This document shows positions 6,456 through 64,000 of a stretch of 64,000 nucleotides of DNA, one piece after another. The DNA comes from an archaeon (GTDB taxonomy: Archaea; Undinarchaeota; Undinarchaeia; Undinarchaeales; JBDRKL01): positions 89,170 to 153,169 of the forward strand of contig JBDRKL010000012.1 of the NCBI GenBank assembly GCA_043814055.1. Direction: 5' to 3'. Positions within the stretch are counted from its first letter, which is position 1. Each line of letters begins with the position of its first letter. A model generated the notes under the pieces. That model did no database searches, was not told the DNA's origin, and was given only the letters and a program-made list of their open reading frames with translations. The position numbers and the translations under genes are program-made.

Positions 6456-7109
6456 GTGTGTTCATCAACATCGGAGGCGATGTTGATGGAGCCGAAGAAA
6501 GAAGAGCTGGAACAACTCAAAGCCACAGGACTTGAGTACGTAGCGAAAGGGTGGCGCTCAAGCGTGTATAAAGCGCAAATGGGCAAGAAGGTTGCTGCGC
6601 TAAAGGTTTGCGAGGCTGGGACGGCTGTGAAGGAGGCCGAGATGCTCAGAGAAGCGAACAAAGTGGGCGTGGGGCCGGAGTTATATGGCAGTGCAGAGCA
6701 CATTGTTGCGATGGAGTTTATTGACGGGGTTCGCTATGCGGACTGGGTTGAAACCGCTGAGCCAGTTGATGTTAAAAAAGTTGTTTTGAAAATACTTGAG
6801 CAGTGCAGGGCGCTTGACAAAGCCGGGATTGTGCACGGCCAGCTCTCCACTGCGGAGAAGCATATTATTGTGAGGGGGAATATTCCGTATATTATTGATT
6901 TTGAAAAGGGCTCCGCAGAGGGGAATGCGCGCAATTTTACAGCTGTTTTGAACTTTATTTTGCTTAATCCGAACGGGTATGCGGCAAAGACAACAGTAGA
7001 AAAGCTTAATATAGACGCCAACGAAGTAAAGCGCTATGCCAGGGAATACTCAGAACACGGGGAAGAAGCCTACGCCAAAACCAGGCGGTGGATACAGACC
7101 GGGATTTAG
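6456..7109 (+). CDS. Atypical serine/threonine kinase, compact RIO-type or Bud32-like
   Basis: Nucleotide-binding loop GWRSSVYKA, catalytic loop [12 protein letters not shown], and metal-binding IIDFEKG. Its neighbours aIF1A and the KH/Dim2 protein favour a RIO1-like assignment. Confidence 0.6.
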
Positions 7110-18619: not shown

Positions 18620-19813
18620 ATGAACCAAAAAATAATATTGGCATACAGTGGTGGACTTGATACATCGTTCTGTGTGCCATACCTGAAAGAGAAGGGATAC
18701 GACGTAATAACCCTGACAGTTGATACTGGAGGGCTGAACAAGGATGAGCTTGAGTATATCGAGAGCCATTCAAAGGAGCTTGGGGCTTCAAAGCACTACT
18801 TTGTTGACGCGAAGGATGAGGTTTATGAGAAAATCATAACCAATGTGATAAAAGCGAACGGGCTTTACCAGGGAGTTTACCCCCTGATGTGCTCGGACAG
18901 GTTCCTTTTTGGGAAGTATGCCAAGGAAATCGCGGACAAGGAGGGCACGAATGTTATAGCGCACGGCTGTACAGGCACTGGGAATGACCAGTTTCGTATA
19001 GAGCTTCCTGTGCTTGCAATGTATCCTGAGATTGAGATAGTTGCGCCAGTGAAGGAATTGGGGAGCACGCGTGATTATGAAATAGAATATCTGGAAAAGA
19101 AAGGGTTTGAAGTTCCGAAAGAGGTCAAGAAGTACACTTATAATCAGAATGTGTTTGGAGTTACGATTTCAGGCTCTGAGATTGACGAGAACAAGGAGAT
19201 TCCTGAGAGCGCGTGGGTAATGTCTAAAGTCACGAAGACTGAGCCGGAGTATGTTGAAATTGAATTTGAGAAAGGAGTCCCGGTTGGATTAGATGGTAAA
19301 AATTTGCCTGGGATTGAGATACTCGGAAAGCTGAATGAAGTTGCTGGAGCGCACGGATATGGCCAAGGATACTATATTGAAGATGAAATCCTTGGAATAA
19401 AGGGACAGCAGGCGTTTGAGGCTCCGGGTTTGATGCTAATTATAGAAGCACACAAAACATTGGAGAAATTGACGTTGACCAAGGAGCAGTTGAGCATTAA
19501 GCACGGGCTTGAGTATACTTGGGCTGAGTACGCGTATTTGGGCAAGCTGTTTGACCCAATGATGAAGGATGTTCAGGCGTTTTTTGATTCAACGCAAGAG
19601 TCCGTGAATGGAAAGGTAAAGATGAAGCTGGAGCACAAATCAGCTTTCCTGTGCGAGGTGCACAGCCCGAACTCGTTGATTGACGAAGATGTGGCGTTGT
19701 ATGCACAGAAGGCAACTTGGACCGGAGGGGACGTGAATGCATTCATGAAATTCTATGGGATGCAAAGCACAACGTTCAATAAAAAAAATGAAAAAACAAA
19801 TCTGGAAAACTGA
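18620..19813 (+). CDS. argG: Argininosuccinate synthase
   Basis: ILAYSGGLDTS PP-loop, ~397 aa. Confidence 0.9.
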   Translation: MNQKIILAYSGGLDTSFCVPYLKEKGYDVITLTVDTGGLNKDELEYIESHSKELGASKHYFVDAKDEVYEKIITNVIKANGLYQGVYPLMCSDRFLFGKYAKEIADKEGTNVIAHGCTGTGNDQFRIELPVLAMYPEIEIVAPVKELGSTRDYEIEYLEKKGFEVPKEVKKYTYNQNVFGVTISGSEIDENKEIPESAWVMSKVTKTEPEYVEIEFEKGVPVGLDGKNLPGIEILGKLNEVAGAHGYGQGYYIEDEILGIKGQQAFEAPGLMLIIEAHKTLEKLTLTKEQLSIKHGLEYTWAEYAYLGKLFDPMMKDVQAFFDSTQESVNGKVKMKLEHKSAFLCEVHSPNSLIDEDVALYAQKATWTGGDVNAFMKFYGMQSTTFNKKNEKTNLEN

Positions 19814-20963
19814 AAAAGAGAATGAATTGAATCCAACTATTCTGGAGTATAATTCAGGAGAGAATATCCAGCTTGACCAGGCTTTGCTCAAATATGACAT
19901 CAAAGTGAACAAAGCGCATGCGAATATGCTTGAGAAAACTGGGTTGATTTCAGCTGAAGAAAACAAAAAGATTCAGGAGGCATTGAACAAGATTCCAGAG
20001 GATTTTAAACTGGATCCGGAACTTGAAGACGTTCATATGAATGTTGAGTCTGCGCTTGGAGAAATTGGAAAGAAACTGCACACTAGCAAGAGCAGAAACG
20101 ACCAGGTTATGGCTGACCTGCAACTCTATATGAAAGACCAGATAGGAGAAATTGCTGGAGGACTGCAGGAGCTTCAGAAAGTTTTGAAAGAGAAAGCAGA
20201 TGAGTACAAAGGAGCAGAAATGCCGGCTTACACGCACATGCAGCCAGCGGTTTCCACCACGTTTGATGAATGGATTGGAGCTTATGCCTGCCTGTTTGAG
20301 TCAGACGTTGAGTTTTTTAATACTGCAAAAAAGTCTCTTTTTTGCCCGCTTGGCGCGTGCGCTGTGGCCGGCACCAATCTTCCAATAGACAAGAAAATGA
20401 CTGCAAAGGAGCTTGGGTTTGAAAAAAGCTTTGAGAATCCAATTGCAGTGATAAGCTCGCGCGGGGAGGTTGAGACACACTGCTTGTTCGGGCTTTCAAT
20501 GGCAATGTTGCACTTGAATAAGCTGGCGAATGACCTTCAGCTTTATTCCACATTTGAGTATGGAATGATTGAGCTAGCGGATGAAGTTTGCACTTCCAGT
20601 TCCATAATGCCGCAGAAGAAGAATCCAGACGTATTGGAGATTTTGCATTCTAAAAGTGTAGAGATTCACAGTTTGTTGATGCAAAACCTTATGATACTTA
20701 ATTCATTGACTTCTGGGTTTCACATGGATATGCAGCAGACCAAGAAGAATGTGATGCAAGGATTTGAGATTGTCCTGAAAAGTATTGAAGTTATGAAAAT
20801 TGTAATTGCCGGACTAAAAGCAAACCCGGAGAAGATGAAAGAGTTGGTTGAGGCAAGTGGCTGCAATGCGATTAAGGAAGTTGAGCAGCTTGTTTTAGGT
20901 GGGATGCCGTTCCGTGATGCGTATAAGAAAGTGAGGCAAAACTATATAACCGCGAATAGGTAA
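19788..20963 (+). CDS. argH: Argininosuccinate lyase
   Basis: Fumarase/aspartase family with TSKSRNDQV and the GSSIMPQKKNPD signature. The start is uncertain (19755 or 19788) and overlaps the argG end. Confidence 0.85.
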   Translation: MKKQIWKTEKENELNPTILEYNSGENIQLDQALLKYDIKVNKAHANMLEKTGLISAEENKKIQEALNKIPEDFKLDPELEDVHMNVESALGEIGKKLHTSKSRNDQVMADLQLYMKDQIGEIAGGLQELQKVLKEKADEYKGAEMPAYTHMQPAVSTTFDEWIGAYACLFESDVEFFNTAKKSLFCPLGACAVAGTNLPIDKKMTAKELGFEKSFENPIAVISSRGEVETHCLFGLSMAMLHLNKLANDLQLYSTFEYGMIELADEVCTSSSIMPQKKNPDVLEILHSKSVEIHSLLMQNLMILNSLTSGFHMDMQQTKKNVMQGFEIVLKSIEVMKIVIAGLKANPEKMKELVEASGCNAIKEVEQLVLGGMPFRDAYKKVRQNYITANR

Positions 20964-20995
20964 ATTCAATACCTAATTGTAGGAGAGATTTAAGA

Positions 20996-22102
20996 ATGGC
21001 TGATAAGAGTCTAATTGTGTTCAGGGACGGCGCTGTGCTAGAGGGGAGAAGCTTTGGCGCGCGGAAAACTGTTGTCGGCGAGATAGTTTTCAATACTGCT
21101 ATGACAGGTTACCAGGAATCGCTGACTGACCCTTCCTACCACAGGCAGATTCTGAACCAGACCTACCCGATTGTTGGAAATTACGGAATTGATGAGGAAA
21201 GTTTTGAGGGCAGCAAGCTCTGGGCCTCCGGGTTCCTGGTCAGGGACTTGTGCGAGAAGCCGTCGCATTATAAATCCATAAAAACTTTGGATGAATTTTT
21301 AAAAGAGCAGGATGTTCCCGGGGTTTGCGGGATTGACACAAGGGCAGTCACTGTGAAGCTGAGGAATGCTGGCTCAATGCTTGGCGCGATTGTGCCTTAT
21401 GAGGGAAAAAAGCCTGAGCTGGGAAAAATCAGGGAAGAAATCAGCTCGTTTGACTATGCAGGAGCGGACCTGGTCAAGGATTACGCAGAGGCTGAGTTCA
21501 AGGACAAGGAGAAAATTATCCACGGCAAAGGGAACACGTACAAGGTTGTGATGATTGACTGCGGAGTCAAGCTCGGGATTGTGCGCGAGATGGTGAAGCG
21601 CGATATTGAGGTTATAAGGGTTCACCCTGTGACAAGCGCTGAGAAGATTCTTGCAATGAAGCCGGACTGCGTGCACATTTCAAACGGACCTGGGAATCCT
21701 GAGACAATACTTTACGCAATAGAAACTGCGAAGAAGCTTGTGGGAAAAGTTCCAATGCACGGGATTTGCGTTGGTCACGGCGTTATTGCCGCGGCGTGCG
21801 GAGGGAAAAATTTCAAGATGAAGTTCGGCCACCGCGGAGGGAACCACGGGGTTAAGGATTTGAAAACCGGGAAGGTTTTCATCACTTCGCAGAACCACGG
21901 CTTCTGCGTGGATGGGGATTCGCTGAAAGGCACTGGGCTTGAGGTTACTGAAGTTAACTGCAATGATGGGACTGTGGAAGGAATGGATCATACAAAGTAT
22001 CCGATTTTTTCAACGCAGTACCATCCTGAGGCGAACCCAGGACCTTACGACGCGCTTGGGAAGTTTGACAGGCTTGTTGAGATGATAAAGGAGAACCGAT
22101 GA
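20996..22102 (+). CDS. carA: Carbamoyl-phosphate synthase small (glutaminase) subunit
   Basis: GATase catalytic triad region GICVGHG plus a CPSase small-chain N-domain. Confidence 0.9.
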   Translation: MADKSLIVFRDGAVLEGRSFGARKTVVGEIVFNTAMTGYQESLTDPSYHRQILNQTYPIVGNYGIDEESFEGSKLWASGFLVRDLCEKPSHYKSIKTLDEFLKEQDVPGVCGIDTRAVTVKLRNAGSMLGAIVPYEGKKPELGKIREEISSFDYAGADLVKDYAEAEFKDKEKIIHGKGNTYKVVMIDCGVKLGIVREMVKRDIEVIRVHPVTSAEKILAMKPDCVHISNGPGNPETILYAIETAKKLVGKVPMHGICVGHGVIAAACGGKNFKMKFGHRGGNHGVKDLKTGKVFITSQNHGFCVDGDSLKGTGLEVTEVNCNDGTVEGMDHTKYPIFSTQYHPEANPGPYDALGKFDRLVEMIKENR

Positions 22103-25100
22103 AAAGAGATGTGAAAAAAGTGCTTGTGATTGGCTCTGGCCCGATTGTGATAGGCCAGGCTGCAGAGTTTGACTACTCAGGAAGCCAGGCGCTAAAGGCG
22201 ATGAAAGAGGAAGGCGTCAAAACCGTGCTTGTCAATTCAAATCCCGCTACTATTCAGACTGACAGGGACATGGCTGATGCAGTTTACATAGAACCGCTGA
22301 CCCCCGAGATTGTTGAGAAAGTGATTGAAAAGGAGAAACCGGACGGAATTTTGTCCGGGATGGGAGGGCAGACAGCGTTGAATATAATTTCTGAATTGGC
22401 TGAACGCGGAGTTCTTGAAAAGCACAATGTTCAAGTGCTTGGGACTCCGGTTGATACGATTGAAACCAGCGAAAACAGGGAGTTGTTCAAGCAGATGATG
22501 CTCAAGATTGGGGAGCCGGTTCCGAAGTCAAAGAGCGTGAACACAGTTCAAGAGGCGCTGGATTTTGCAGAGGAAATAGGATATCCGGTTGTTGTAAGGC
22601 CGGCTTACACACTTGGCGGCTCAGGCGGCGGCATTGCCCACGACTTCGTTGACCTAGAGAGGATTGCAGGCAATGGCATTTCGCTGAGCAGGATAGGCCA
22701 GGTTCTCATAGAGGAATACCTGAGCGGCTGGAAGGAGATAGAGTACGAGGTTATGCGCGATTCTGCTGACAACTGCATAACCATCTGCAATATGGAGAAC
22801 CTTGACCCGATGGGAATACACACAGGGGATAGCATTGTTGTTGCGCCGTCGCAGACGCTGAGCGATGATGATTACCACATGCTGCGCTCGGCGAGCCTGA
22901 AAATTATCCGCGCGCTGAAAGTGGAGGGCGGGTGCAACATACAGTTTGCCCTTGACCCAAAAAGCAGCGATTATAGAATCATAGAAGTCAACCCGAGAGT
23001 TTCAAGAAGCTCAGCGCTCGCGTCAAAAGCAACCGGATACCCAATAGCACTCATCTCCGCTAAGATAGCAATTGGCAGAACGCTTGGTGAGATACCAAAC
23101 GCAGTAACTAAAGACACGCCAGCCTCTTTTGAGCCGGCGCTGGATTATATTGTTGTTAAAATACCAAGATGGCCATTTGAGAAGTTCCCAATGGCTGACA
23201 GAACCCTTGGAACCGAGATGCGCAGCACTGGTGAGGTGATGGCAATAGGCAGGACGTTTGAGGAGGCGCTGGACAAGGCAGTGAGGAGCTTGGATATTGG
23301 GAAGAAATTGATTGATGGGACTGGGGAGATGGATAAGGGGCACTTGAGAGAATTTTTGACAGTCGCAACTCACAAGCGGCTGTTCCACATAGTTGACGCG
23401 ATTAAGAGCGGATTTTCAGACGAGGAGATTGTTGAGCTCACAAAGATAGATCCGTGGTTTATCTGGAAAGTACGGAGCATTGTGGAGAGTGGAGATGGGA
23501 AAAAGAAAAAGTGCTACAAGATGGTGGACACTTGCGCGGCAGAGTTTGAGGCAAAGACGCCGTATTACTATTCGACTGAAGGCGATGTAAGTGAGAGCGT
23601 TGCATCAAACAAGAAGAAAATAATTATACTTGGCTCCGGGCCAATACGGATAGGACAGGGTATTGAGTTTGACTACTGCACTGTTCACGCGGTGTGGGCG
23701 CTTAGGGAGATGGGCATAGAGACAATTGTAATTAACAACAACCCAGAGACAGTTTCAACTGATTATGACACTTCGGATAAATTGTATTTTGAGCCGCTTG
23801 ATTTTGAGCACGTGATGAATGTTGTGAACGTGGAGAAACCAACAGGCATTATAACCCAGTTCGGCGGGCAGACAGCTGTAAATCTTTCTTTGCCTTTAGA
23901 AAAAGCAGGTGTTAAAGTCTTTGGAACCTCACCAAAAAGTATGGACTTGGCTGAGGACAGGACTAAATTCACAAAGGTTTTGAAAAAGCTCAAGATACCG
24001 CAGGCAAACTATGGTGTTGCACACAGCTTTGAAGATGCAAAGAAGGTTGTTGCCAGTATTGGCTATCCGGTTTTGGTCAGGCCGTCTTATGTTCTTGGTG
24101 GCAGGGCAATGGAGATAGTGCATAGCGAAGATGAACTTGTGAATTACATGAAAGAGGCCAGAAAAGTTTCTGAAAAGCGACCCATACTCATTGACCAATT
24201 TTTGCAGAATGCGATAGAAGTTGATGTTGATGCGGTGTGTGATGGAAGTGAAGTGCTTATTGGCGGCATCATGGAGCACATAGAGCAGGCAGGAGTGCAC
24301 TCTGGGGACAGCTCGTGCGTTGTGCCACCGCAGAGTTTGAGCAACGAGATTGTGAAGAAAATCAGGGATTACACTAAAAAGCTTGCGCTAGGTTTGAATG
24401 TTGTTGGGTTAATGAATGTGCAGTATGCGGTGAAAGATGAGGTGGTTTATGTTCTTGAGGCGAACCCGCGGAGCTCAAGGACAGTGCCGTTCATAAGCAA
24501 GGCAACAGGGATTCCGCTCGCGAAGATTGCGGCGCAGGTCATAGCCGGAAAGAAATTAAAAGAGTTAAAAGTGAAGAACAAAATTCTGAATCATGTTTCA
24601 GTTAAGTCCGTTGTTTTCCCGTTCAACAAGCTGCCTGGCTCTGACACCAAGCTCGGGCCTGAGATGAAGAGCACTGGAGAAAGCATGGGCATAGCTGACA
24701 GCTTCCCGGAGGCATTTTACAAGGCACAGCTCGGCGCAGGCGTTGAGATTCCATCAGATGGGTGTGTTTTTTTCGCTGTGAACCACGAGGACAAAGAGCA
24801 TATCACTGAGATAGCGCGCGGCTTTGAGGGGCTGGGGTTTGAGATACTTGCAGTTGGCCGAACTGCAAAAATTCTCCGCGTGGACGGCGTTTCAGTTAGA
24901 AAAGTCTTTAAGGCCAGCGAGGGAAACCTAAACATTGTTGACCTTATCAAGCGCGGAGAAGTGGACCTTGTGATTAACACGCCGACAAAAGGAGGATCAG
25001 CGAATAGGGATGGCTATAAGATACGGACGGCGTGCATACGCTCAAATGTTCCGTGCATAACAACGCTTGCAGGGGCAAGGGCTGCGCTCAAGGCGATTGA

Positions 25101-25152
25101 AAATGCAGGTAGGGGCGGGATGCAGGTTAAGCCGCTTGGGGATTACTACTGA
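22099..25152 (+). CDS. carB: Carbamoyl-phosphate synthase large subunit
   Basis: Duplicated ATP-grasp halves, oligomerisation and MGS-like domains, 1017 aa. ATGA-coupled to carA. Confidence 0.9.
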   Translation: MKRDVKKVLVIGSGPIVIGQAAEFDYSGSQALKAMKEEGVKTVLVNSNPATIQTDRDMADAVYIEPLTPEIVEKVIEKEKPDGILSGMGGQTALNIISELAERGVLEKHNVQVLGTPVDTIETSENRELFKQMMLKIGEPVPKSKSVNTVQEALDFAEEIGYPVVVRPAYTLGGSGGGIAHDFVDLERIAGNGISLSRIGQVLIEEYLSGWKEIEYEVMRDSADNCITICNMENLDPMGIHTGDSIVVAPSQTLSDDDYHMLRSASLKIIRALKVEGGCNIQFALDPKSSDYRIIEVNPRVSRSSALASKATGYPIALISAKIAIGRTLGEIPNAVTKDTPASFEPALDYIVVKIPRWPFEKFPMADRTLGTEMRSTGEVMAIGRTFEEALDKAVRSLDIGKKLIDGTGEMDKGHLREFLTVATHKRLFHIVDAIKSGFSDEEIVELTKIDPWFIWKVRSIVESGDGKKKKCYKMVDTCAAEFEAKTPYYYSTEGDVSESVASNKKKIIILGSGPIRIGQGIEFDYCTVHAVWALREMGIETIVINNNPETVSTDYDTSDKLYFEPLDFEHVMNVVNVEKPTGIITQFGGQTAVNLSLPLEKAGVKVFGTSPKSMDLAEDRTKFTKVLKKLKIPQANYGVAHSFEDAKKVVASIGYPVLVRPSYVLGGRAMEIVHSEDELVNYMKEARKVSEKRPILIDQFLQNAIEVDVDAVCDGSEVLIGGIMEHIEQAGVHSGDSSCVVPPQSLSNEIVKKIRDYTKKLALGLNVVGLMNVQYAVKDEVVYVLEANPRSSRTVPFISKATGIPLAKIAAQVIAGKKLKELKVKNKILNHVSVKSVVFPFNKLPGSDTKLGPEMKSTGESMGIADSFPEAFYKAQLGAGVEIPSDGCVFFAVNHEDKEHITEIARGFEGLGFEILAVGRTAKILRVDGVSVRKVFKASEGNLNIVDLIKRGEVDLVINTPTKGGSANRDGYKIRTACIRSNVPCITTLAGARAALKAIENAGRGGMQVKPLGDYY

Positions 25153-25643
25153 GGAAGCCTTGGCCGACGGCCGGTTTCTTTAACAAGCCGGTTAAATTTG
25201 TCCTGCAAATCTGTCATAGCGTATTCAATCAGCTCATCCAATTTGGAGATGTCTTCTTCTGTGACTTTCAAAAAAAGAGTGAATGAATGCTGGACGCCTT
25301 TTAATTGATTCAAGTTGTTTTGGGTGGTTTCAAAATCTCTGCGAAGTGAGGTGATTGTGAAGGGGGATGAATGGTTTTCCTTTAAAGAGCGTGCGATGCC
25401 TGCAATTCGGAATTCCTCGTGCTGTATTGAATCGTCTATTTGCGCCAGTATTCCTTTGAACTCTTCTTGCCGTGCGAGCAGAGCCTTTTTAAACGTATTC
25501 AAACCAGGCAGGATGGAATTGAAGTCCTTGTAGTCCTGATCAGAAATGCGGGCGCGTGACTTGGTAAAAAATTTGTCTGCCCACGCCCTGAGACCCTCTT
25601 CAAGTTCCTCAGTGAGGTGATTGTACCCCTTTTGATCACCCAT
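25146..25643 (-). CDS. Hypothetical coiled-coil protein (165 aa)
   Basis: No recognisable motif. Overlaps the carB stop by 7 nt on the opposite strand. Confidence 0.4.
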   Translation of the reverse strand: MGDQKGYNHLTEELEEGLRAWADKFFTKSRARISDQDYKDFNSILPGLNTFKKALLARQEEFKGILAQIDDSIQHEEFRIAGIARSLKENHSSPFTITSLRRDFETTQNNLNQLKGVQHSFTLFLKVTEEDISKLDELIEYAMTDLQDKFNRLVKETGRRPRLPQ

Positions 25644-25846
25644 ATGATAAAATAGTTGTTTTCGCTGTATAAAAGCTTTTATGGAAAGGTATAAATCACA
25701 TTTTAAACATGATATTTTAGATATGGGCGCAAAAACTTCAGTTCGGAGAAGCAGGCGGCTTTAGCCGCGCCCATCGGTATCTTTTTATTCACCCAAAGAT
25801 TATTAGTCTTCAGCCAATGGGCTGTTGACGGTGTAAGGCAAAAAAA

Positions 25847-26033
25847 GGATCCGTAGCCTAGTCTGGATAAGGCGACAGCCTTCTAACAACCGCAAAATCG
25901 GTTGACGCTTTGGGTCGCATTCCGCTTCGCGGAAGCGACCCGGCTCGCGCGTTCGCACGCGCTCGCTCGGTCAATTCGAGCAAGTTGGTTGGAAGCCAGC
26001 TGTAAATCAGGGGTTCAAATCCCCTCGGATCCA
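25847..26033 (+). tRNA. tRNA-Arg (anticodon TCT) with a 112-nt intron at canonical position 37/38
   Basis: Acceptor GGATCCG/CGGATCC, D-arm GCCT-AGTCTGGATA-AGGC, anticodon stem ACAGC (25875-79) with loop CTTCTA|A, 3' stem GCTGT at 25999-26003, T-arm AGGGG-TTCAAAT-CCCCT. Intron ~25886-25997. Confidence 0.8.
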
Positions 26034-26047
26034 CTCAAACCTAAAAT

Positions 26048-26297
26048 GGGCCAGTAGCCTAGTCTGGATACGAGGCGGAAGCAAGCTCCCGCTTGTTTCC
26101 AGCTCCGCTGGAAAAGGCGTCAGGCTTCGGACCAGCGGCAAATTCATTTGCTCTGGAAGGATACCTGAAGACCGAGGGTTCAAAACTCCGCCGCTGCGGA
26201 GGATAGCAGGGGGCTTGGTTAAAACCGAGCATTCCGCCAAAAGCGGAAGCCCCCTATAAAATGCAGCGCCGGACTGAAAATCCCTTCTGGCCCACCA
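26048..26297 (+). tRNA. tRNA-Arg (anticodon TCG) with three apparent introns (D-arm, anticodon 37/38, T-loop) and encoded CCA
   Basis: Acceptor GGGCCAG/CTGGCCC, D-stem GCCT, D-loop AGTCTGGATA, then a 44-nt insert (26071-26114) before AGGC-G. Anticodon stem TCAGG (26120-24) with loop CTTCGG, a ~32-nt insert, then A-CCTGA (26163-68). T-stem GAGGG (26174-78) pairs CCCTT (26282-86) across a ~90-nt insert. Confidence 0.6.
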
Positions 26298-26333
26298 TAA
26301 TCATTAAAACCAAGGAAAACCTACGGGAAAACA

Positions 26334-28496
26334 ATGGCAAAGAAAGAAAAGTCAAAAAAAGCGGTAAAGAAGAAGGTAATGCCGAAAACTCTAAAGAAGA
26401 AGGCAGCCATTAAGAAGAAACTAGTAGTGAAGAAGAAAGCTTTGATTAAGAAAAAAATTGTAGTGAAGAAGAAACCAGTGTCTAAGAAGAAAGTGACACC
26501 AAAGAAGAAGGTTTCAAAACCAAAGAAAGCCCTTGCAAAGAAAAAGCTGGTGGTGAAAAAGAAAGCTGCAAAACCGAAAGCCAAAAAGGCAGCGATTAAG
26601 AAGAAACCGGTAAAAGCAAAGAAAACTGTGAAGAAGACAACAGTTAAGAAGAAGGTTTCAATAAAAAAGAAGGCTGTAAAAGCCAAGAAAAAAGCAGCAA
26701 AACCTAAGAAGCCGCCGGAACCAAAAGAAGAGCAAGAACCTGAGAAACCAAATGAACCTACCTATGACCCGTGGCAGGAACTAAAGAATCAGGCACAAGC
26801 AGCGATTGAAGAAGCTGTGAAGACCGCGAAGATTAAGGTTCCATCAGAGGTAAATTTTGCAACTGCGATTGAAGAGCCGCCAAGCGCCAAGATGGGAGAT
26901 GTGGCTTGTAGCATTGCGTTTTCATTGGGAAGAGCATCTAAGAAGAACCCAAGACAGCTTGCGGAACTGCTCATATCAAAAGTAAAGAAGCCGCCAATTT
27001 TCAAGAAGGTTGCGCTCGCAGGAGCGTACATCAATTTCTTTCTGGATCACGATAAGTTCGCAAAGCACATTCTTGCAAAGGTTGTTGACGACGATTATGG
27101 CCGGGGAGGGAAGAAGGGCGACAAGGTAATGGCAGAGTTCTGCCAGGTTAACACGCACAAGGCGTTTCATATTGGGCATATTAGGGGAACCATACTTGGC
27201 GAGACTATTTCACGCATTTTGGAGTACAGCGGGTATGAAGTTGTGAGAGCAAATTACCAAGGGGACATTGGCTCGCACGTTGCAAAGTGGATGTGGTATT
27301 ATAACAAGTTCAAGAGTGGAGAGAGCCCGCATGGCAAGGGGGAAACCTGGCTTGCTAATATTTACCGGGCTGCCACGCAGGAGCTAAGGGAGCACCCTGA
27401 ATACGAGAAAGAGACCAGCGAGATTCTGCAGAAGCTTGAAGCCGGTGAAGATGAAAAACTGATGCAGGCCTGGCGGGAAACTCGGCAGTGGTCGCTTGAT
27501 GAGTATGAGAAAATTTACAAAGAGCTTGACGTGCGATTTGACCGATATTTCTTTGAGAGCGAGATGGGAAACTCTGGCAAGGAAATCGTGGACGAACTGC
27601 TCAAGAAAAAGATTGCAAAGATGAGCGAGGGCGCTATTGTGATAAATTTGGAGAAGTTTGGGCTCGGAACGTATCTTTTGCTTAAGAGCGACGGGACCGC
27701 GCTTTATTCCACCAAGGACCTGGCGCTTGCAAAGGCTAAGTTTGAAGAGTTTGGAATTGATATTTCACTTTATGTTGTTGGATCAGAGCAGCGGCTTTAT
27801 TTCCAGCAGCTGTTCAAGACGCTTGAGCTGATGGGCTTCAAGCGCGCGAAGAAGTGCCACCATCTTGCTTTTGACCTGATAAGCCTGAAGGAAGGCAAGA
27901 TGTCCTCAAGGGAAGGTACTGCCATTTTATATTCTGAGCTGAGAGACGGGATGTTCAAGAGGGCGCTTGAAGAAGTTATGGAAAGAAATCCGGAGATGGA
28001 CCCGCACGAACAGAAGATCATTGCGAATAAAGTTGCGTACGGCGCGATGAAGTTTGACATACTTAACATAAACAACAACAAGACAATATTCTTTGACTGG
28101 GAAAAAGCACTTGAATTTGAGGGCGAGACCGCGCCTTATGTGCAGTACGCCGGAGTTCGATGCAAGAGAATACTTGAGAAGGCTGGAAAAGTGCCTGAGA
28201 CTGGAAAAGTTGACTTCGGAAAGCTGAAGCTTGCAGCAGAGCACGAGCTTGTCAAGATGCTCGCGAGATTCCCTGGGGTTATTGCCACGGCTGCGAAGGA
28301 GTACAAACCGCACTTCATTGCGAATTATGTATATGGGCTAGCTGACAAGTTTAGCACTTTCTATACCGAGGCGCCTATAATGGACGCGGGAGATAAGGCA
28401 ACAAAAGATGCTCGGCTTATGCTGCTAAGCGCAACATATAAAACCCTTGAGAAAGCCCTATATCTGCTCGGAATAGAAATTCCTGAGCGTATGTAA
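26334..28496 (+). CDS. argS: Arginyl-tRNA synthetase with a ~145-aa polylysine N-terminal extension
   Basis: Class I HIGH motif (AFHIGHIRG), KMSK-like GKMSSREG, and a DALR anticodon-binding C-terminus. The N-terminus is KKK(L/I)VVKKK repeats. The antisense ORF 26321..26686 is an artefact of the repeats. Confidence 0.9.
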   Translation: MAKKEKSKKAVKKKVMPKTLKKKAAIKKKLVVKKKALIKKKIVVKKKPVSKKKVTPKKKVSKPKKALAKKKLVVKKKAAKPKAKKAAIKKKPVKAKKTVKKTTVKKKVSIKKKAVKAKKKAAKPKKPPEPKEEQEPEKPNEPTYDPWQELKNQAQAAIEEAVKTAKIKVPSEVNFATAIEEPPSAKMGDVACSIAFSLGRASKKNPRQLAELLISKVKKPPIFKKVALAGAYINFFLDHDKFAKHILAKVVDDDYGRGGKKGDKVMAEFCQVNTHKAFHIGHIRGTILGETISRILEYSGYEVVRANYQGDIGSHVAKWMWYYNKFKSGESPHGKGETWLANIYRAATQELREHPEYEKETSEILQKLEAGEDEKLMQAWRETRQWSLDEYEKIYKELDVRFDRYFFESEMGNSGKEIVDELLKKKIAKMSEGAIVINLEKFGLGTYLLLKSDGTALYSTKDLALAKAKFEEFGIDISLYVVGSEQRLYFQQLFKTLELMGFKRAKKCHHLAFDLISLKEGKMSSREGTAILYSELRDGMFKRALEEVMERNPEMDPHEQKIIANKVAYGAMKFDILNINNNKTIFFDWEKALEFEGETAPYVQYAGVRCKRILEKAGKVPETGKVDFGKLKLAAEHELVKMLARFPGVIATAAKEYKPHFIANYVYGLADKFSTFYTEAPIMDAGDKATKDARLMLLSATYKTLEKALYLLGIEIPERM

Positions 28497-28511
28497 TAGA
28501 GACAAAAGTGT

Positions 28512-28694
28512 GCCAGGGTAGCCTAGTTTGGATAAGGCGACAGCCTCCTAACAGCGGCAAATTCCGCTGGCAAATTGGGCCGCATTCGGCTTTCAGCCGA
28601 AGCGACCCGGCCCGCTGCGCGGGCAAAAGCCAATAGCGGAAAGCTGATGGAAGCAAGCTGTAAGTCGAGGGTTCAAATCCCTCCTCTGGTGCCA
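28512..28694 (+). tRNA. tRNA-Arg (anticodon CCT) with a 105-nt intron at 37/38 and encoded CCA
   Basis: Acceptor GCCAGGG/CTCTGGT (two G-U pairs), D-arm GCCT-AGTTTGGATA-AGGC, anticodon stem ACAGC with loop CTCCTA|A, 3' stem GCTGT (28657-61), T-arm GAGGG-TTCAAAT-CCCTC. Intron 28551-28655. Confidence 0.75.
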
Positions 28695-28699
28695 TAATA

Positions 28700-29182
28700 A
28701 TGACCTTAGTAGACGAATGCAAAATAAGGGACGCAGCGCCTGAAGATGTTGATGCAATCATAGAACTGTACAAGGAAGCCCTAGTCCCGATATGGGACAG
28801 GATACACAGGCCCTATGACCTTGTTAGGCTAAGGAGAACGCTTGAGAAACGGTTTGAAAAAGGGCATAGCGGTCTGGTGGTTGTTAGGGAGAACAAGATT
28901 ATTGGGTGCGTTCTGACCGCACTGCGAACCGGGAAGATATCCAATAAAAAAGTAATGAAAATATCGTCTCTTCTGGTCAAGCCGGAATTTTTTGGGAAAG
29001 GCTTAGGCCAGGAACTCATTAGAATCGTAGAAGACACAGCAAGGCAAAATGGCGTGGAGCGGATAAGACTGAAGTGCGCCTATAAGAACACTGCACTGGA
29101 GTTCTACAACAAAATGGGTTTTCAGGAAGACCAGATAAGCTTTATCAAGGAGCTAAAAACAAAAAAAGCCCCCGTAGTCTAG
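28700..29182 (+). CDS. GNAT family N-acetyltransferase (160 aa)
   Basis: Acetyl-CoA binding motif region (Q/R)xxGxG/A: FGKGLGQELIRIV. Its last ~15 nt overlap the 5' end of tRNA-Arg(GCG). Confidence 0.7.
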   Translation: MTLVDECKIRDAAPEDVDAIIELYKEALVPIWDRIHRPYDLVRLRRTLEKRFEKGHSGLVVVRENKIIGCVLTALRTGKISNKKVMKISSLLVKPEFFGKGLGQELIRIVEDTARQNGVERIRLKCAYKNTALEFYNKMGFQEDQISFIKELKTKKAPVV

Positions 29183-29241
29183 TTTGGATAGGATGTGAGC
29201 TTGCGGAGCTCGAGGCTTGGGTTCAAATCCCGACGGGGGCA
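29168..29241 (+). tRNA. tRNA-Arg (anticodon GCG), intron-less
   Basis: Acceptor GCCCCCG/CGGGGGC, D-arm GTCT-AGTTTGGATA-GGAT, anticodon arm TGAGC-TTGCGGA-GCTCG, T-arm TTGGG-TTCAAAT-CCCGA, discriminator A. Confidence 0.8.
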
Positions 29242-30717
29242 CTAATGTTTTCTTTTACTAAAACTCTTTTTGAACTCGTGGCGCCAGAGCTTGTCGCGGA
29301 ATGACTTTCGCTTTGAGTTGAAAAAGAAGACTGCAGCTATTATGAGGAGTATTACAACAGCTAAAAGCAGTTTTCCGCCTAAGGAGTCCAGCAACCTGAC
29401 CGGTTTTTCCTCAATTACAAATGCTGCAGATTCGCTCTCCGCAAGCCGCTGTTCATCCACAAGAATCGTGACCTTGAGCAAGTGGTCGCCAGGCGCTTCT
29501 GGGATGTCCCAGACGCTCAACACATCCTTTTTCTCGCCCCTGAGAAGCGTGAATGAATTAAAACCAATTTTATAAGAGTCCATATAGAAGTTTACCGTGC
29601 CCTGAATGTCAATGTTTCCTGTGTTCTCAAGCGCGGCAACCAAATCTACTTGGTCTCCAATGTACGCGGAGCTGGCGTTGAGCTTGAGGCCGGCAAGTAA
29701 TTTCTTTTCTTCCGCGACTGTGAAAGTCTTTGCGCACTTGCCCTTGTTGCCATACTCATCAGTTGCCTCTGCCTTTGCAGTGTACTGGCCGGGAGGGTCC
29801 TGCTTGCTTATCGGGGCTTCAAAAGAGAAGTGGCCGTTGCTATCTGAGATTGCGTCATATGTTGTTGAGATGTCCTCTGAGGTTGTAAACCAGGATTTTG
29901 TGCTTATTTTATCAAGTGGCTCGTCGTGCACATTGTCTATGGTTCCAAAGAGGACCACAACACCGCCTGGGTTTATGTTTGTCTTCTGGAGAGAACACGC
30001 CATCTTGAGCTCATCCGTGACAATGATGTCATCAATGATGGAGGTTCTTGCGTTCCCGTAGTTGTCAAGAAAGTTTGCTTCTAGTGAATATGTTCCAGGA
30101 GGGTCTGACGCTTTGAATGTGTAAGCGTAGGATATGTAGCCGTTCTTAAGGTCTGCGGAATCTGTAACAATGCCACCCAGACCGGACTCCTCAAGGCTTA
30201 TGGACGCTTTGCCCTCTACCGGGAACCCGTGGGCGTTAAGGACTATACTGCTGAACTCAAGGGTTTCGCCTCGGTTGAAGATGCGAGCGTTTATGCTACG
30301 CTCAACAAAGAGGTTCTCGGTTATGGTGAATTTGCCAGAGTAAAAATCTGCATAGGAATCGTAGCCGGTCTTTATCTTTACCTTGATTCTCCAGTCGTCC
30401 GCGGTGTTTATGGTGCTGGTTACGTCCCAGAGGAGTGTGCCCTTGGTGATTAGAGAGAATGAAACTGGGGTGTCTGCGAGGAAGGAGTATATTTTAGTGG
30501 TTATTGGAATTTCCTGGGAAGTAGAGTCGCTCACAGCAAGGAACTGGACCTCAGAGCCTGGAATGTTCTCGCCGAGCTCAATTGTTCCAGTAATCACGAT
30601 TTGGTCGCCGTAGTTGAACGTGCTGTTCGCCCGCGGGTTTGAAACTGTCATTCCAGCGTGAGCCCCGGATAGCACGATTAGAAATAACACTAGGGCGCAT
30701 AATGCAAGCTTTTTCAT
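29242..30717 (-). CDS. Secreted / cell-surface protein with N-terminal signal peptide and C-terminal TM anchor (491 aa)
   Basis: MKKLALCALVLFLIVLSGAHA signal and a C-terminal LLLAVVILLIIAAVFFF anchor followed by a basic tail. Beta-rich repeats suggest Ig/CARDB-like domains. Confidence 0.5.
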   Translation of the reverse strand: MKKLALCALVLFLIVLSGAHAGMTVSNPRANSTFNYGDQIVITGTIELGENIPGSEVQFLAVSDSTSQEIPITTKIYSFLADTPVSFSLITKGTLLWDVTSTINTADDWRIKVKIKTGYDSYADFYSGKFTITENLFVERSINARIFNRGETLEFSSIVLNAHGFPVEGKASISLEESGLGGIVTDSADLKNGYISYAYTFKASDPPGTYSLEANFLDNYGNARTSIIDDIIVTDELKMACSLQKTNINPGGVVVLFGTIDNVHDEPLDKISTKSWFTTSEDISTTYDAISDSNGHFSFEAPISKQDPPGQYTAKAEATDEYGNKGKCAKTFTVAEEKKLLAGLKLNASSAYIGDQVDLVAALENTGNIDIQGTVNFYMDSYKIGFNSFTLLRGEKKDVLSVWDIPEAPGDHLLKVTILVDEQRLAESESAAFVIEEKPVRLLDSLGGKLLLAVVILLIIAAVFFFNSKRKSFRDKLWRHEFKKSFSKRKH

Positions 30718-30757
30718 ATTCTCCCAAGGATGGGTATGAATTTTGAGTATTTAAGGG

Positions 30758-31657
30758 TTACTTTGTGATTTGAGTTCCTGCTTTTCCGCCAAGAGCTTTC
30801 TCAATATCGCTGAGGTGGCAGATTATTGCACGCTCGCCGCCGGATTCAATAAAGTTTATTGCGGCTTGAATTTTCGGGCCCATTGAGCCCGCTGGGAAAG
30901 AATCCATGTGTTTTTTTGCTTCTTTAACCGTGAGTTTGTCAAGGAGCTTTTGGTTTGGCTTGCCGAAGTTGAGGTATGCGCCTTTCGTGTCCGTGACTAT
31001 TAACAAAATATCTGCTCCGATTTCCTCGCCGAGCTTCGCGCTTGCAAGGTCCTTGTCTATGACTGCTTCTATGCCATGGTAGTTGTGCTCTTCCCTTTTT
31101 ATCACAGGAATTCCGCCCCCGCCGCAGGTTACAACCAGGAAGCCGGCCTTGAGGAGCTCCTTGATTTTGTAAGAGCCGACAATCCTTATTGGTTTTGGAG
31201 ATGCCACGACTTTGCGCCAGCCCTTTGCGGTTTTCACAAAGCCTGGTTTTTTGTTTTTGTAAGCAGGGCCGATTGGCTTTGTCGGGTTCTTGAACGCTGG
31301 GTCGTTCGCGTCAACCTGAACGTAAGTTGAAAGGGTGGAGAGGAGCGGGTGCATAATTCCGATTTTCATTAATTCGTTATCAAGTGTTTTCTCAATCATG
31401 TAACCGATTTGACCCTGAGTCATAGCGACCAGGACTTCAAGGGGCATTTCAGGGACTTCAGAAGTTGCCTGCTGCTGGAGAAGAAGGTTGCCGACCTGGG
31501 GTCCGTTGCCGTGCGTGATTACAAGATTGTATTTGCCGTATAATTTCGCGACCTTGCTCAGCGGGATTTCAAGGTTGTTGAACTGCTCGCTCACGTTCCC
31601 TTCCTGACCTTTCTGGATGAGGGCGTTGCCTCCGAGCGCGATAATTAGAGTTTTCAT
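30758..31657 (-). CDS. arcC: Carbamate kinase
   Basis: Amino-acid kinase family with LIIALGGNAL at the N-terminus, ~300 aa, typical carbamate kinase length and motifs. Confidence 0.75.
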   Translation of the reverse strand: MKTLIIALGGNALIQKGQEGNVSEQFNNLEIPLSKVAKLYGKYNLVITHGNGPQVGNLLLQQQATSEVPEMPLEVLVAMTQGQIGYMIEKTLDNELMKIGIMHPLLSTLSTYVQVDANDPAFKNPTKPIGPAYKNKKPGFVKTAKGWRKVVASPKPIRIVGSYKIKELLKAGFLVVTCGGGGIPVIKREEHNYHGIEAVIDKDLASAKLGEEIGADILLIVTDTKGAYLNFGKPNQKLLDKLTVKEAKKHMDSFPAGSMGPKIQAAINFIESGGERAIICHLSDIEKALGGKAGTQITK

Positions 31658-31745
31658 TAATTTTGTATTATTTTGAGGGGTAATATGCTTTTTTGTTTGT
31701 GGAAAAACAAAATGTTTATGAAGGAATGAATTTAAATGAAATAAA

Positions 31746-32486
31746 ATGGCAGTAACAAGCTATAGGAGAGACGGCGCTTTGCTTTTGGACAAGCTTTTCC
31801 CAGGGTTCGGGTTGGATGTTAAGATTTATGAAATCTGGAGGGATTTTGACTTAGATGATTACAAGATGGGGAAAGACGATCGTCTTATGGTGAGAACATT
31901 CGGCAGTAATTCTCCAAATGTTAGAAACCCAGATATAATTGTTAAGAATACTGCGGATGCGCTTAAGTTTATGAAAAGGCAGGCTAAGAAAAATCGGTTT
32001 GGATACATAGGTCAAAGGACCATGAATGAAAATGATATAAAATATTCTGTGAGTGGCTCGCTTGATTATAGGAGAATTCCTTCATTAGCATTCACAATAC
32101 GAGAAGTGGACAAAGGATTCATATTGAATAATATGGAAACAGATGAGCGCGGAACAACTACACGAGAGGCAAAGGTGCTTGTTGAGTTCAAATATGATTA
32201 TTTCTCCGCAACTCCGAAAGCTCCTAGCTTGTCACCACCTAATTTTCCGAAGAGCGAGCTTAGAAAACTGAAGAAAACTGTACTTCAGGTAGTGAAGTTC
32301 GCAAAAATAGTTGATGATAATTACACTAAAAACTATGCGAAGAAGGACCTAATGCCAAATTTCCTTTTGTATGTTTCAAAGAAGGGCGACATTTTGCCAG
32401 TTGATTTAAAGCAGAAATACAATTTGAAGAGTACACAAAGAAAAATCTGGATGGGGATTAAAGTTTCCCCATCAAAAACAGCATAA
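31746..32486 (+). CDS. Hypothetical protein (246 aa), cysteine-free, low GC, sitting between arcC and argF
   Basis: No recognisable domain. Its base composition (~38% GC) differs from the flanking ~50% GC genes. Confidence 0.4.
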   Translation: MAVTSYRRDGALLLDKLFPGFGLDVKIYEIWRDFDLDDYKMGKDDRLMVRTFGSNSPNVRNPDIIVKNTADALKFMKRQAKKNRFGYIGQRTMNENDIKYSVSGSLDYRRIPSLAFTIREVDKGFILNNMETDERGTTTREAKVLVEFKYDYFSATPKAPSLSPPNFPKSELRKLKKTVLQVVKFAKIVDDNYTKNYAKKDLMPNFLLYVSKKGDILPVDLKQKYNLKSTQRKIWMGIKVSPSKTA

Positions 32487-33390
32487 TCGCGTTCTGGGCG
32501 TGCATTCTGTTCTCCGCCTGGTCGTACACGATGCTCTGCGGTCCGTCAATCACGTCAGCTGTTTGCTCAAGCCCACGGGCTGCTGGGAGGCAGTTCATGA
32601 AAATCGCGTCCGGCTTTGCCTTGCTCATGAAGTCCGCGTTAATTTGGTACGGCATGAACTTTGCCTTGCGCGCTTCCATCTGGTCTTCTGGAATGTGGTA
32701 GGACATCCAGGAGTCAGTGTAGACCACATCCGCGTCCTTTGCTGCCTCAGCTGCGTCGTGTGTTACGATTACTTTGCCTCCAGAGGTTTTGCAGAGCTCT
32801 TTGCACTCGTCAAGAACTTCCTGCTCAGGGGAATATTCAGCACCCTCTGGGCAGGCTACTGCGATTTCAAAGCCCATCACAGCTGCTGCGCGCATCAGGT
32901 CGTAGGTCACGTTGTTGTGGCAGTCGCCGGAGTATGCCATCTTGATTCCTTCCAGACTTCCTTTCTTTTCAACTATTGCTTGGAGGTCGCAGATGATTTG
33001 GCACGGGTGCGCGAAGTCGTCAAGCGCGTTTATTACTGGCACGTTGGATTCTTCAGAGAATTCTTTAAGGTCTTCCTTCTTGTTCACGCGGGCCATAATT
33101 ATGTCAACATATCTTGAGGCGCACTTCGCAGTGTCCTTGATGTTCTCTTTCTTGCCGAGCGGGGAGTCCTTGATGCTGTAGAATATTGCGTGGCCACCGA
33201 GGCGAGTCATACCGGTTTCAAAGGAGACGCGGGTGCGCAGAGAGGGTTTCTCAAAGAGCATTAGAAGGGTCTTACTCTTCATTGTTGTGTTGTAATTCTC
33301 AGGGTTCTTTTTTATGTCAATTGCTTTTTCAATAATAGTTGCAATCTCGTCCTTTGTAAAATCAGATACTTTTAGCAAATGTCTTGTCAT
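32458..33390 (-). CDS. argF: Ornithine carbamoyltransferase
   Basis: STRTR carbamoyl-phosphate motif, HPCQ and an SMG-like ornithine-binding region. The antisense ORFs 32500-33181 were discarded. Confidence 0.9.
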   Translation of the reverse strand: MTRHLLKVSDFTKDEIATIIEKAIDIKKNPENYNTTMKSKTLLMLFEKPSLRTRVSFETGMTRLGGHAIFYSIKDSPLGKKENIKDTAKCASRYVDIIMARVNKKEDLKEFSEESNVPVINALDDFAHPCQIICDLQAIVEKKGSLEGIKMAYSGDCHNNVTYDLMRAAAVMGFEIAVACPEGAEYSPEQEVLDECKELCKTSGGKVIVTHDAAEAAKDADVVYTDSWMSYHIPEDQMEARKAKFMPYQINADFMSKAKPDAIFMNCLPAARGLEQTADVIDGPQSIVYDQAENRMHAQNAIMLFLMGKL

Positions 33391-43818: not shown

Positions 43819-43915
43819 AGCCCCGTGGTGTAGTGGCCAAGCATACGAGCCTCTGGAGGGTTTTAAAACTCAGGGTGAGCTGGTGACAACGGTTCGAATC
43901 CGTTCGGGGCTACCA
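43819..43915 (+). tRNA. tRNA-Gln (anticodon CTG) with a ~21-nt intron at 37/38 and encoded CCA
   Basis: Acceptor AGCCCCG/CGGGGCT, D-arm GTGT-AGTGGCCAA-GCAT, anticodon stem CGAGC with loop CTCTGG|(intron AGGGTTTTAAAACTCAGGGTG)|A, 3' stem GCTGG (one G-G mismatch), T-arm AACGG-TTCGAAT-CCGTT. Confidence 0.6.
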
Positions 43916-59210: not shown

Positions 59211-59375
59211 ATGGTAAATTGTGTAGAATGCAACGCGGCTGTTGAACTGCCATCGGATGCACGGCAGGGAGAGATAGTGGACTGCCCAGAGTGCGGGATA
59301 GAACTTGAGATAGTTAACCCAGGAACTGGAGAAGTAAGAGTAGCTGAAGCTACAGAAGAGGACTGGGGCGAATGA
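59211..59375 (+). CDS. lysW: Amino-group carrier protein LysW/ArgW (54 aa), missing from the ORF track
   Basis: [54 protein letters not shown] has the zinc ribbon CxxC...CxxC and a C-terminal EDWGE. ATGA-coupled to the next gene. Confidence 0.8.
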
Positions 59376-63765: not shown

Positions 63766-63948
63766 AGCGGGGTAGGGCAGCCTGGAGTGCCCGCGAGGCT
63801 CATAACAACCTTTTTCCGACCTTCGGCCGCAAAAAGCTTGACCAAAAAGAAATCGCTTTGCGATTTCGTGCCACTGCGCGGCAATTAAAAATCTGCGCAG
63901 AGGGTTGAGAGACACCTCGAGGTCGATGGTTCAAGTCCATCCCCCGCT
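63766..63948 (+). tRNA. tRNA-Met or Ile2 (anticodon CAT) with a ~109-nt intron at 37/38
   Basis: Acceptor AGCGGGG/CCCCGCT, D-arm GGGC-AGCCTGGAGT-GCCC, anticodon stem CGAGG with loop CTCATA|A, 3' stem CCTCG (63914-18), T-arm GATGG-TTCAAGT-CCATC. The anticodon stem lacks the GGG/CCC of initiator tRNA. Confidence 0.7.
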
Positions 63949-64000
63949 ACTAATCACAAAAGTGGCTTCACAAAGTGGAGAGCCACCTTGGGAGGTGCGG

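Follow-up and report, generated by a model that had tools for sequence, protein, structure and literature searches.

A candidate three-intron tRNA-Arg(UCG) gene upstream of argS in an Undinarchaeota-like archaeon

The stretch of DNA considered here, a 64-kilobase (kb) portion of the archaeal contig JBDRKL010000012.1 that is referred to in full as the window, carries directly upstream of argS, the gene of arginyl-tRNA synthetase (ArgRS), a segment of 250 nucleotides (nt) that reads as a tRNA-Arg(UCG) gene interrupted by three introns. Introns in the D-arm, the anticodon loop and the T-loop of this tRNA had been proposed in an earlier note made from the letters alone, and the proposal is borne out. 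Once the three inserts are excised, 78 nt remain, which ARAGORN types as tRNA-Arg(tcg) with a perfect cloverleaf, and bulge-helix-bulge (BHB) motifs lie at the three junctions. The gene is made up of the following parts.

26048-26297, plus strand: tRNA-Arg(UCG) gene, four exons and three introns, 250-nt precursor
26048..26069, plus strand: exon 1, tRNA positions 1-20a; acceptor 5' strand GGGCCAG, U8 and A9, D-stem GCCU, D-loop AGUCUGGAU
26070..26113, plus strand: intron 1, 44 nt, D-loop site 20a/21, relaxed BHB
26114..26130, plus strand: exon 2, positions 21-37; A21, D-stem 3' strand AGGC, G26, anticodon stem UCAGG, C32 and U33, anticodon UCG, G37
26131..26162, plus strand: intron 2, 32 nt, canonical 37/38 site, BHB with one mismatch
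26163..26184, plus strand: exon 3, positions 38-59; A38, anticodon stem 3' strand CCUGA, variable loop AGACC, T-stem GAGGG, T-loop UUCAAA
26185..26280, plus strand: intron 3, 96 nt, T-loop site 59/60, strict BHB central helix
26281..26297, plus strand: exon 4, positions 60-76; U60, T-stem 3' strand CCCUU, acceptor 3' strand CUGGCCC, discriminator A73, encoded CCA

Exons and splice motifs of the gene

All 21 stem pairs of the spliced product are standard, and a reading of the sequence finds U8, A14, G18 and G19, A20, A21, U33, G53, U54, U55, C56, A58 and C61 retained. In an alignment with eight arginine tRNAs, drawn from relatives and paralogues, 99.5% of the cloverleaf cells pair, and 13 of the 21 pairs include a compensatory change. 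The exons are collinear and lie on one strand within 250 nt, so the gene is neither a split nor a permuted tRNA gene.

The mature D-loop would read AGUCUGGAUA, and the D-arm as a whole, GCCT-AGTCTGGATA-AGGC-G, is the same as that of the tRNA-Arg(TCT) gene 14 nt upstream and one base off that of tRNA-Arg(CCT). The identity to the neighbouring tRNA-Arg genes claimed in the earlier note thus holds for the first neighbour and fails for the second. Its 44-nt D-arm insert, set at 26071-26114, is equivalent to the BHB-placed insert at 26070-26113, because an A flanks both ends and the two cuts give an identical product. The insert of about 32 nt expected at the 37/38 site was found at that length. 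The T-loop insert was correctly located, its length being 96 nt rather than about 90 nt.

BHB motifs were defined by a 4-base-pair (bp) helix flanked by two 3-nt bulges, with the relaxed hBH and HBh' forms included (PMC4090602; PMC5829648). All donor and acceptor pairs of the precursor were scanned under this rule, and then the three junctions singly. The cut is placed after the second bulge nucleotide because, for a 37/38 intron, the first two anticodon bases sit in the helix (PMC4090602). The earlier note had named such a fold as the check on its proposal, and a BHB motif or a relaxed form of it can be drawn at all three splice sites, every junction lying two nucleotides into a 3-nt bulge beside a 4-bp helix.

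In the T-loop, the central helix joins UUCA (26179-82) to UGAA (26275-78) by four Watson-Crick pairs out of four, between bulges AA^A and AA^U (the caret marks the cut), with the T-stem (26174-78/26282-86) as outer helix. After one C/C mismatch, the inner helix runs from UCCG (26187-90) paired with CGGA (26270-73) through six more base pairs, 10 in total, into a branched interior with two hairpins. A second BHB-like motif lies inside this intron (26204-26259: AUAG CA^G, a 7-bp helix, CUAU AA^A) and would define a nested 51-nt intron. Since similar scores are common in the BHB scan, this motif may be due to chance, and a nested intron is not claimed.

The motif at the canonical site is the best scoring in the whole precursor. 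Its outer helix is the 5-bp anticodon stem (26120-24/26164-68), its central helix pairs CUUC (26125-28) with AAGG (26157-60) at three of four positions, its bulges are GG^A and AU^A, and a 4-bp inner helix, CCAG/CUGG, follows (26132-35/26153-56).

In the D-loop, CUGG (26064-67) pairs with CUGG (26108-11) at four of four positions, through two G-C and two G-U pairs, between bulges AU^A (26068-70) and AA^A (26112-14). By BHB geometry the cut falls after U20a, between 26069 and 26070 and between 26113 and 26114. An inner helix of 2 bp (CG at 26071-72 with CG at 26106-07) precedes a 10-bp hairpin in the interior (26077-86/26091-26100). This motif is classed as relaxed because three unpaired bases stand between the central helix and the D-stem, its outer helix. 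No D-loop BHB restricted to Watson-Crick pairs exists, and CUGG/CUGG was at first rejected by hand. The pairing is credible because G-U pairs are allowed and because CCAG stands at the homologous place in two loci from other genomes, L002 and L005. By this comparison, the weak CUGG/CUGG helix of the window is a G-U variant of the helix that homologous introns build from Watson-Crick pairs.

The same arm lends itself to a different processing, in which the first of two AGGCG copies (26073-77 and 26115-19) is the real 3' strand of the D-stem and the intron spans 26078-26119, at site 26/27 or within the repeat. The product would be an 80-nt tRNA with a 12-nt D-loop that holds an extra CG and reads AGUCUGGAUACG, and with GGAUACGAGGCG joined to UCAGG. 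Either AGGC copy can indeed pair with GCCU, and ARAGORN accepts the 80-nt product as tRNA-Arg(tcg), though its D-stem is poor. The direct repeat, which had been taken earlier as the boundary of the insert, is real, but a repeated 5-mer inside 60 nt is not significant alone. Moreover, none of the six repeat registers, drawn by hand, gives a 4-bp helix two positions upstream of the cuts, and the BHB scan lists none there. The product would also depart from the D-arm common to the neighbouring arginine tRNAs, and L002 and L005 cut after GGAU and before A-RGGC. This alternative processing is thus very improbable.

With shuffled introns, 0.5%, 2% and 1.4% of trials yield pairing as good as the observed BHB at the respective junction, and in none of 20,000 shuffle trials does equally good pairing arise at all three jointly. 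Folded without constraints, the 250-nt precursor forms an extended cloverleaf with all four tRNA stems, in which the D, anticodon and T arms are each lengthened by their own intron. The minimum free energy (MFE) structure of the precursor coincides with the centroid, and its energy of -116.4 kcal/mol compares with -87.4 +/- 4.5 kcal/mol for 200 dinucleotide shuffles (z = -6.43).

The strong structure of introns 1 and 3, together with the 96-nt length of intron 3, which is long for an archaeal tRNA intron, could point to inserts of some other nature, for example self-splicing introns of group I or II, short mobile elements or introns that host a C/D-box small RNA. Self-splicing group I and group II introns have a conserved ribozyme core and span hundreds of nucleotides. 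At 44, 32 and 96 nt, the inserts are far below such sizes, and no Rfam match occurs in or near them at E <= 5. A C box (RUGAUGA) paired with a D box was not found by reading, a lone CUGA standing at 26274-77, nor did Rfam return a small nucleolar RNA match. Further copies of the inserts, including free-standing intron copies, are absent from the window and from 25 related loci, and every junction has its BHB motif. An origin from elements of this kind is extremely unlikely.

Maturation of the tRNA-Arg(UCG) precursor would follow the established pathway. EndA would cut after the second nucleotide of each 3-nt bulge, leaving 2',3'-cyclic phosphate and 5'-OH ends, and an RtcB-type ligase would join the four exons into the 78-nt tRNA, the introns probably being circularised. 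Since the three motifs lie in separate arms, each could be cut without regard to the others. By implication from the relaxed D-loop motif, the endonuclease would have broad specificity, and such enzymes are described in DPANN archaea as the epsilon2 form (PMC3239211) and as the alpha4 form with an L3 loop (PMC5829648).

The position upstream of argS in related genomes

The order carB, tRNA-Arg(UCU), tRNA-Arg(UCG), argS, tRNA-Arg(CCU) is complete in L016, L019 and L020. L025 has the same order as the window, except that the anticodon of the gene in the UCG slot is UCU. On the short contigs L002 and L023, the region around argS is visible without carB. Among seven other loci, the gene directly 5' of argS is tRNA-Arg(UCG) in L002, L016, L019, L020 and L023 and a UCG-like gene with the UCU anticodon in L025, and L001 has no tRNA directly upstream of argS. 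In the window, the three-intron gene is the sole occupant of this slot. Introns in the gene at this position are distributed as follows.

L002, L016, L019 and L023: none
L020 and L025 (Naiadarchaeum-like genomes): T-loop 59/60 intron only, with the helix UUCA/UGAA as in the window
Window: three introns

The closest relative, L002, whose ArgRS is 70% identical, thus has an intron-less UCG gene upstream of argS. Its tRNA-Arg(CCU) gene downstream of argS (3445-3597) holds introns of 20, about 42 and 19 nt at the three sites used in the window (20a/21, 37/38 and 59/60). The D-loop intron of this gene reads CUGG AU^A [CGCGC-UAC-GCGCG] CCAG AA^A AGGCG, and its T-loop intron reads UUCG AA^A ... CGAG UU^U. 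The T-loop site recurs in L002, L012, L019, L020 and L025; in L012 the helix is UUCG/CGAA, the compensatory change tracking base 57 of the T-loop. The D-loop site recurs in L002 and L005, both with CCAG where the window has CUGG, and the tRNA-Arg of L005, from Woesearchaeota, shows a strict BHB there (CUGG AU^A ... CCAG AU^A). Several metagenomic arginine tRNA genes have D-loop introns one or two bases off, at 19/20. A 5'-exon scan of the genome collection matched only three distant archaea.

These loci bear on the possibility that the gene is a decaying pseudogene, a former tRNA-Arg(UCG) disabled by three insertions while another genomic copy substitutes for it. The blindness of standard detectors to the gene, the imperfect D-loop BHB and a view of 64 kb of the genome would all fit decay. 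However, the invariant exon bases are intact, all 21 stem pairs are standard, and each insert has BHB pairing exactly where its removal restores the tRNA, a coincidence that the shuffle trials never reproduced. In addition, the same three sites are interrupted in relatives whose exons are intact, and the gene fills a conserved tRNA-Arg slot upstream of argS. A pseudogene is therefore unlikely.

Several observations nevertheless weigh against a functional three-intron gene. Splicing of the precursor is something that we infer rather than observe, and an intron-less second tRNA-Arg(UCG) copy may exist elsewhere in the genome, of which 64 kb are in view. Two G-U pairs and an outer helix set behind a 3-nt internal loop make for a weak D-loop BHB, and its conformer lies at -26.1 kcal/mol, 3.2 above the MFE of the arm (-29.3 kcal/mol). 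The central helix of the anticodon BHB holds a C/A mismatch. Lastly, neither an EndA nor an RtcB gene was found in the 64-kb window. The search for EndA, which combined a motif regular expression, Pfam on ten unassigned open reading frames (ORFs) and phmmer --max with Methanocaldococcus jannaschii EndA as query (sequence checked against PDB 1A79), was negative in the window and in the fetched loci. With these points taken into account, 26048-26297 is very probably a functional three-intron tRNA-Arg(UCG) gene of an Undinarchaeota-like, DPANN-type archaeon.

Other arginine tRNA genes of the related loci show further disruption. In L002, tRNA-Arg(UCU) (551-664) has one D-loop intron, and ARAGORN mis-parses the gene as CCU with an anticodon-loop intron. 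The introns at 19/20 form a family in the arginine tRNAs of the metagenome contigs L006, L007, L008, L010, L012 and L015, with the helix GUCU/GGRY and a conserved 3' end, GGRYAA^AU; L010 and L015 have an extra hairpin near the 3' splice site. The UCG-slot gene of L025 (GCA_037442905.1, 2340-2470) has the anticodon loop CU-UCU-GA, that is, UCU followed by G37, in a UCG-type body that also bears the T-loop intron, and may represent an anticodon shift; a regular tRNA-Arg(UCU) gene, likewise with a T-loop intron, lies in the same locus. In L019 (GCA_964401205.1), a structured repeat of about 150 nt, CAGCTTTTTGYGCACGAGGCAA ... GCAAGTGCKGTGATRCGCC, occurs at about 590-770, at 2255-2400 and at 4500-4604. 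Its sites are the T-loop intron of tRNA-Arg(UCU) and the 3' trailers of tRNA-Arg(UCG) and tRNA-Arg(GCG), and it may be a mobile or processed RNA element.

Genes for tRNA-Arg also adjoin argS in L004 and L005. In L005 (Woesearchaeota SI048_bin60, JABICX010000010.1), the tRNA-Arg gene directly upstream of argS (6746-6949) has a D-loop intron, and beyond it the donor ...AGGGCACAG^ (H-A = GCAC) meets four alternative BHB-compatible acceptors, GTGT TT^G, GTGC AC^G, GTGC AA^G and GTGT AA^G. Each acceptor precedes one of the tandem cassettes of about 15 nt, which together hold the anticodon loops of all four arginine isoacceptors (CU-UCG-G, CU-UCU-A, CU-CCU-A and UU-GCG-G). A canonical 37/38 BHB leads to the single 3' exon only from the last cassette (GCG), and no BHB path to that exon was found from cassettes 1-3. 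The gene is thus either a three-intron tRNA-Arg(GCG) with a 29/30 intron that contains three anticodon-loop mimics or a source of several isoacceptors by alternative splicing. The relatives of L005 are too distant for comparison, the nearest ArgRS being 42% identical; of two loci considered, L021 lacks an arginine tRNA gene 5' of argS, and in L022 hardly any intergenic sequence precedes argS.

The arginine gene cluster and its annotation

The tRNA-Arg(UCG) gene lies within an array of arginine tRNA genes around argS, with which it is probably co-transcribed. The array and the remaining tRNA genes of the window are laid out as follows.

25847..26033, plus strand: tRNA-Arg(UCU), 112-nt intron at 37/38 (25886-25997); Rfam RF00005, 51.9 bits
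Spacer of 14 nt: tRNA-Arg(UCU) to tRNA-Arg(UCG)
Spacer of 36 nt: tRNA-Arg(UCG) to argS
26334..28496, plus strand: argS, arginyl-tRNA synthetase of 720 amino acids (aa); Pfam Arg_tRNA_synt_N, tRNA-synt_1d, DALR_1
Spacer of 15 nt: argS stop codon to tRNA-Arg(CCU)
28512..28694, plus strand: tRNA-Arg(CCU), 105-nt intron at 37/38 (28551-28655)
28700-29182, same strand as tRNA-Arg(GCG): ORF for a predicted GNAT acetyltransferase
29168..29241, plus strand: tRNA-Arg(GCG), intron-less; found by ARAGORN and by Rfam, 58.3 bits
43819-43915: tRNA-Gln(CUG), 21-nt canonical intron (43857-43877), BHB CUCU GG^A ... AGGG UG^A
63766-63949: tRNA-Met(CAU), initiator type (AGCGGGG..., A1-U72), 109-nt intron at 37/38 (63805-63913)

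The intron of tRNA-Arg(UCU) has a strict BHB, CUUC UA^A ... GAAG CC^A. By Pfam and a reading of translations, argG, argH, carA and carB lie 5' of the tRNA array, and an amino-acid kinase gene and an ornithine carbamoyltransferase-like gene lie 3' of it. Arginine-related genes form an island that comprises 18620-33390, with argG, argH, carA, carB, the four tRNA-Arg genes, argS, the kinase gene and the carbamoyltransferase-like gene, and, further on, a LysX/ArgX-ArgC-ArgB-ArgD-like operon at 59372-63112. The GNAT ORF overlaps the first 15 nt of tRNA-Arg(GCG) on the same strand.

The best homologues of ArgRS come from archaeal metagenome-assembled genomes, Candidatus Naiadarchaeum and Undinarchaeales, at 53-70% identity. 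Because the best homologues belong there, the host is taken as a DPANN-type, Undinarchaeota-like archaeon. The synthetase has a lysine-rich N-terminal extension of about 140 aa with KKK repeats (26334-26760). Its closest relatives, at 664-679 aa, have the extension too, the others being about 575 aa long. A similar lysine-rich extension of about 35 aa is found in the TATA-binding protein (1254-1370).

Neither ARAGORN nor Rfam at its default setting reports the tRNA-Arg(UCG) gene in the window, and no Rfam match falls in 26048-26297 even in permissive mode, at E <= 5. ARAGORN is blind to the unspliced gene and to versions from which only one non-canonical insert has been removed. With the D-loop and T-loop inserts both removed, it reports Arg(tcg) with a 32-nt anticodon-loop intron, the same 26131-26162 as that placed by the BHB motif. 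Across the window, ARAGORN finds two of the six tRNA genes, one of them mistyped, and Rfam at its curated threshold finds three. The tRNA-Arg(CCU) gene is missed by ARAGORN and at the Rfam gathering threshold and appears in the Rfam E-value mode alone, at 45.9 bits. The tRNA-Met(CAU) gene escapes ARAGORN and both Rfam modes, its intron-removed form being recognised by ARAGORN, and the tRNA-Gln(CUG) gene is called tRNA-Pro(tgg) by ARAGORN when unspliced and Gln(ctg) once spliced. Because ARAGORN and Rfam miss genes of this kind, automated tRNA counts for such genomes will look incomplete. Decoding of CGA probably depends on the hidden tRNA-Arg(UCG) gene.

Kinship of the introns and comparison with known systems

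The 37/38 introns of the UCU and CCU genes (112 and 105 nt) are homologous (z = 17), with compensatory changes in their hairpins. The 32-nt intron of the UCG gene shares the exact 13-mer CAGCGGCAAATTC with the 37/38 intron of the CCU gene at the same offset (z = 7.5) and looks like a shortened relative of it. The D-loop and T-loop introns show no significant similarity to each other or to the other sequences compared. The 96-nt T-loop intron was also considered as a homologue of the neighbours' long 37/38 introns, a kinship left as unproven: the hairpin GCAUUCCGC...GCGGAAGC is shared, but the alignments (z = 1.9-2.8) are not significant. A 9-mer of this hairpin occurs five times in the window, against 1.5 occurrences expected.

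Positions 8-26 of the UCG gene are identical to those of the neighbouring UCU gene and of the three-intron CCU gene of L002, and 7 of 21 differ from the UCG gene that fills this slot in L002. In its acceptor and anticodon stems, the window gene is of the UCG type. This mosaic suggests that gene conversion from a paralogue brought in the non-canonical introns, and the identity of the D-arm to those of paralogues points to gene conversion rather than to transposition. More generally, the D-loop and T-loop introns may have spread among the argS-linked arginine isoacceptors by gene conversion together with the flanking D- and T-arm exons, the window representing a recent change from an intron-less to a three-intron gene. 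This scenario is raised because in L002 the UCG gene at this position is intron-less and the CCU gene across argS from it has three introns, and it is offered tentatively, as a possible but doubtful history. Alternatively, introns may have been inserted independently at preferred sites, or ancestral introns may have been lost repeatedly. To judge from the loci compared, introns in the argS-linked arginine tRNA set are gained and lost over short evolutionary distances. The window and the seven related loci form a natural series, with 0, 1 or 3 introns in the tRNA-Arg gene upstream of argS where one is present, that should be useful for the study of tRNA intron gain and loss in archaea.

The earlier note regarded multi-intron tRNAs with non-canonical intron positions as known from only a few archaeal lineages. 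This view is dated, as the sites 20/21 and 59/60, relaxed hBH and HBh' motifs and three-intron tRNA genes have already been described for archaea (PMC4090602), and heavy tRNA gene disruption has been reported in DPANN archaea, where hidden tRNA genes are expected (PMC5829648). The three-intron tRNA-Arg(UCG) gene is consequently of a known sort and calls for no new mechanism. A literature search found no paper on tRNA introns in Undinarchaeota-like genomes; the gene would extend three-intron tRNA genes to this little-studied DPANN lineage, and implies that the splicing endonuclease of the lineage can cut a relaxed D-loop motif.

Among DPANN archaea, the disrupted tRNAs that accompany the epsilon2 endonuclease of ARMAN-2 (PMC3239211) and the alpha4 enzyme with its L3 loop (PMC5829648) resemble the present case in having introns outside the anticodon loop and relaxed BHB motifs. 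The gene also fits the anticipation that standard predictors miss tRNA genes in these archaea (PMC5829648). Intron transposition among tRNA genes of Thermoproteales (Fujishima et al. 2010, as cited in PMC4090602) offers a second parallel. There, as here, paralogous tRNAs share related introns (here the homologous UCU and CCU introns, and the 13-mer common to UCG and CCU). In the present set, the same non-canonical sites are filled in different isoacceptors of sister genomes. In contrast to the Thermoproteales, the sharing seen here is limited to the argS-linked arginine isoacceptors, and the non-canonical introns lack significant mutual similarity.

The closest likeness in gene structure is to the multi-intron tRNAs of Thermoproteales, for example the tRNA-Pro(UGG) of Pyrobaculum islandicum, with introns at 25/26, 37/38 and 56/57 (Sugahara et al. 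2007, as cited in PMC4090602). In both cases, three BHB introns interrupt a collinear gene, one at the canonical site and one each in the D and T regions; the motifs at the non-canonical sites are relaxed, and removal by EndA and a ligase is presumed. The two differ in that the Thermoproteales are Crenarchaeota, whereas the gene described here belongs to a DPANN, Undinarchaeota-like host, concerns another tRNA, uses the sites 20a/21 and 59/60, and carries a long T-loop intron of 96 nt.

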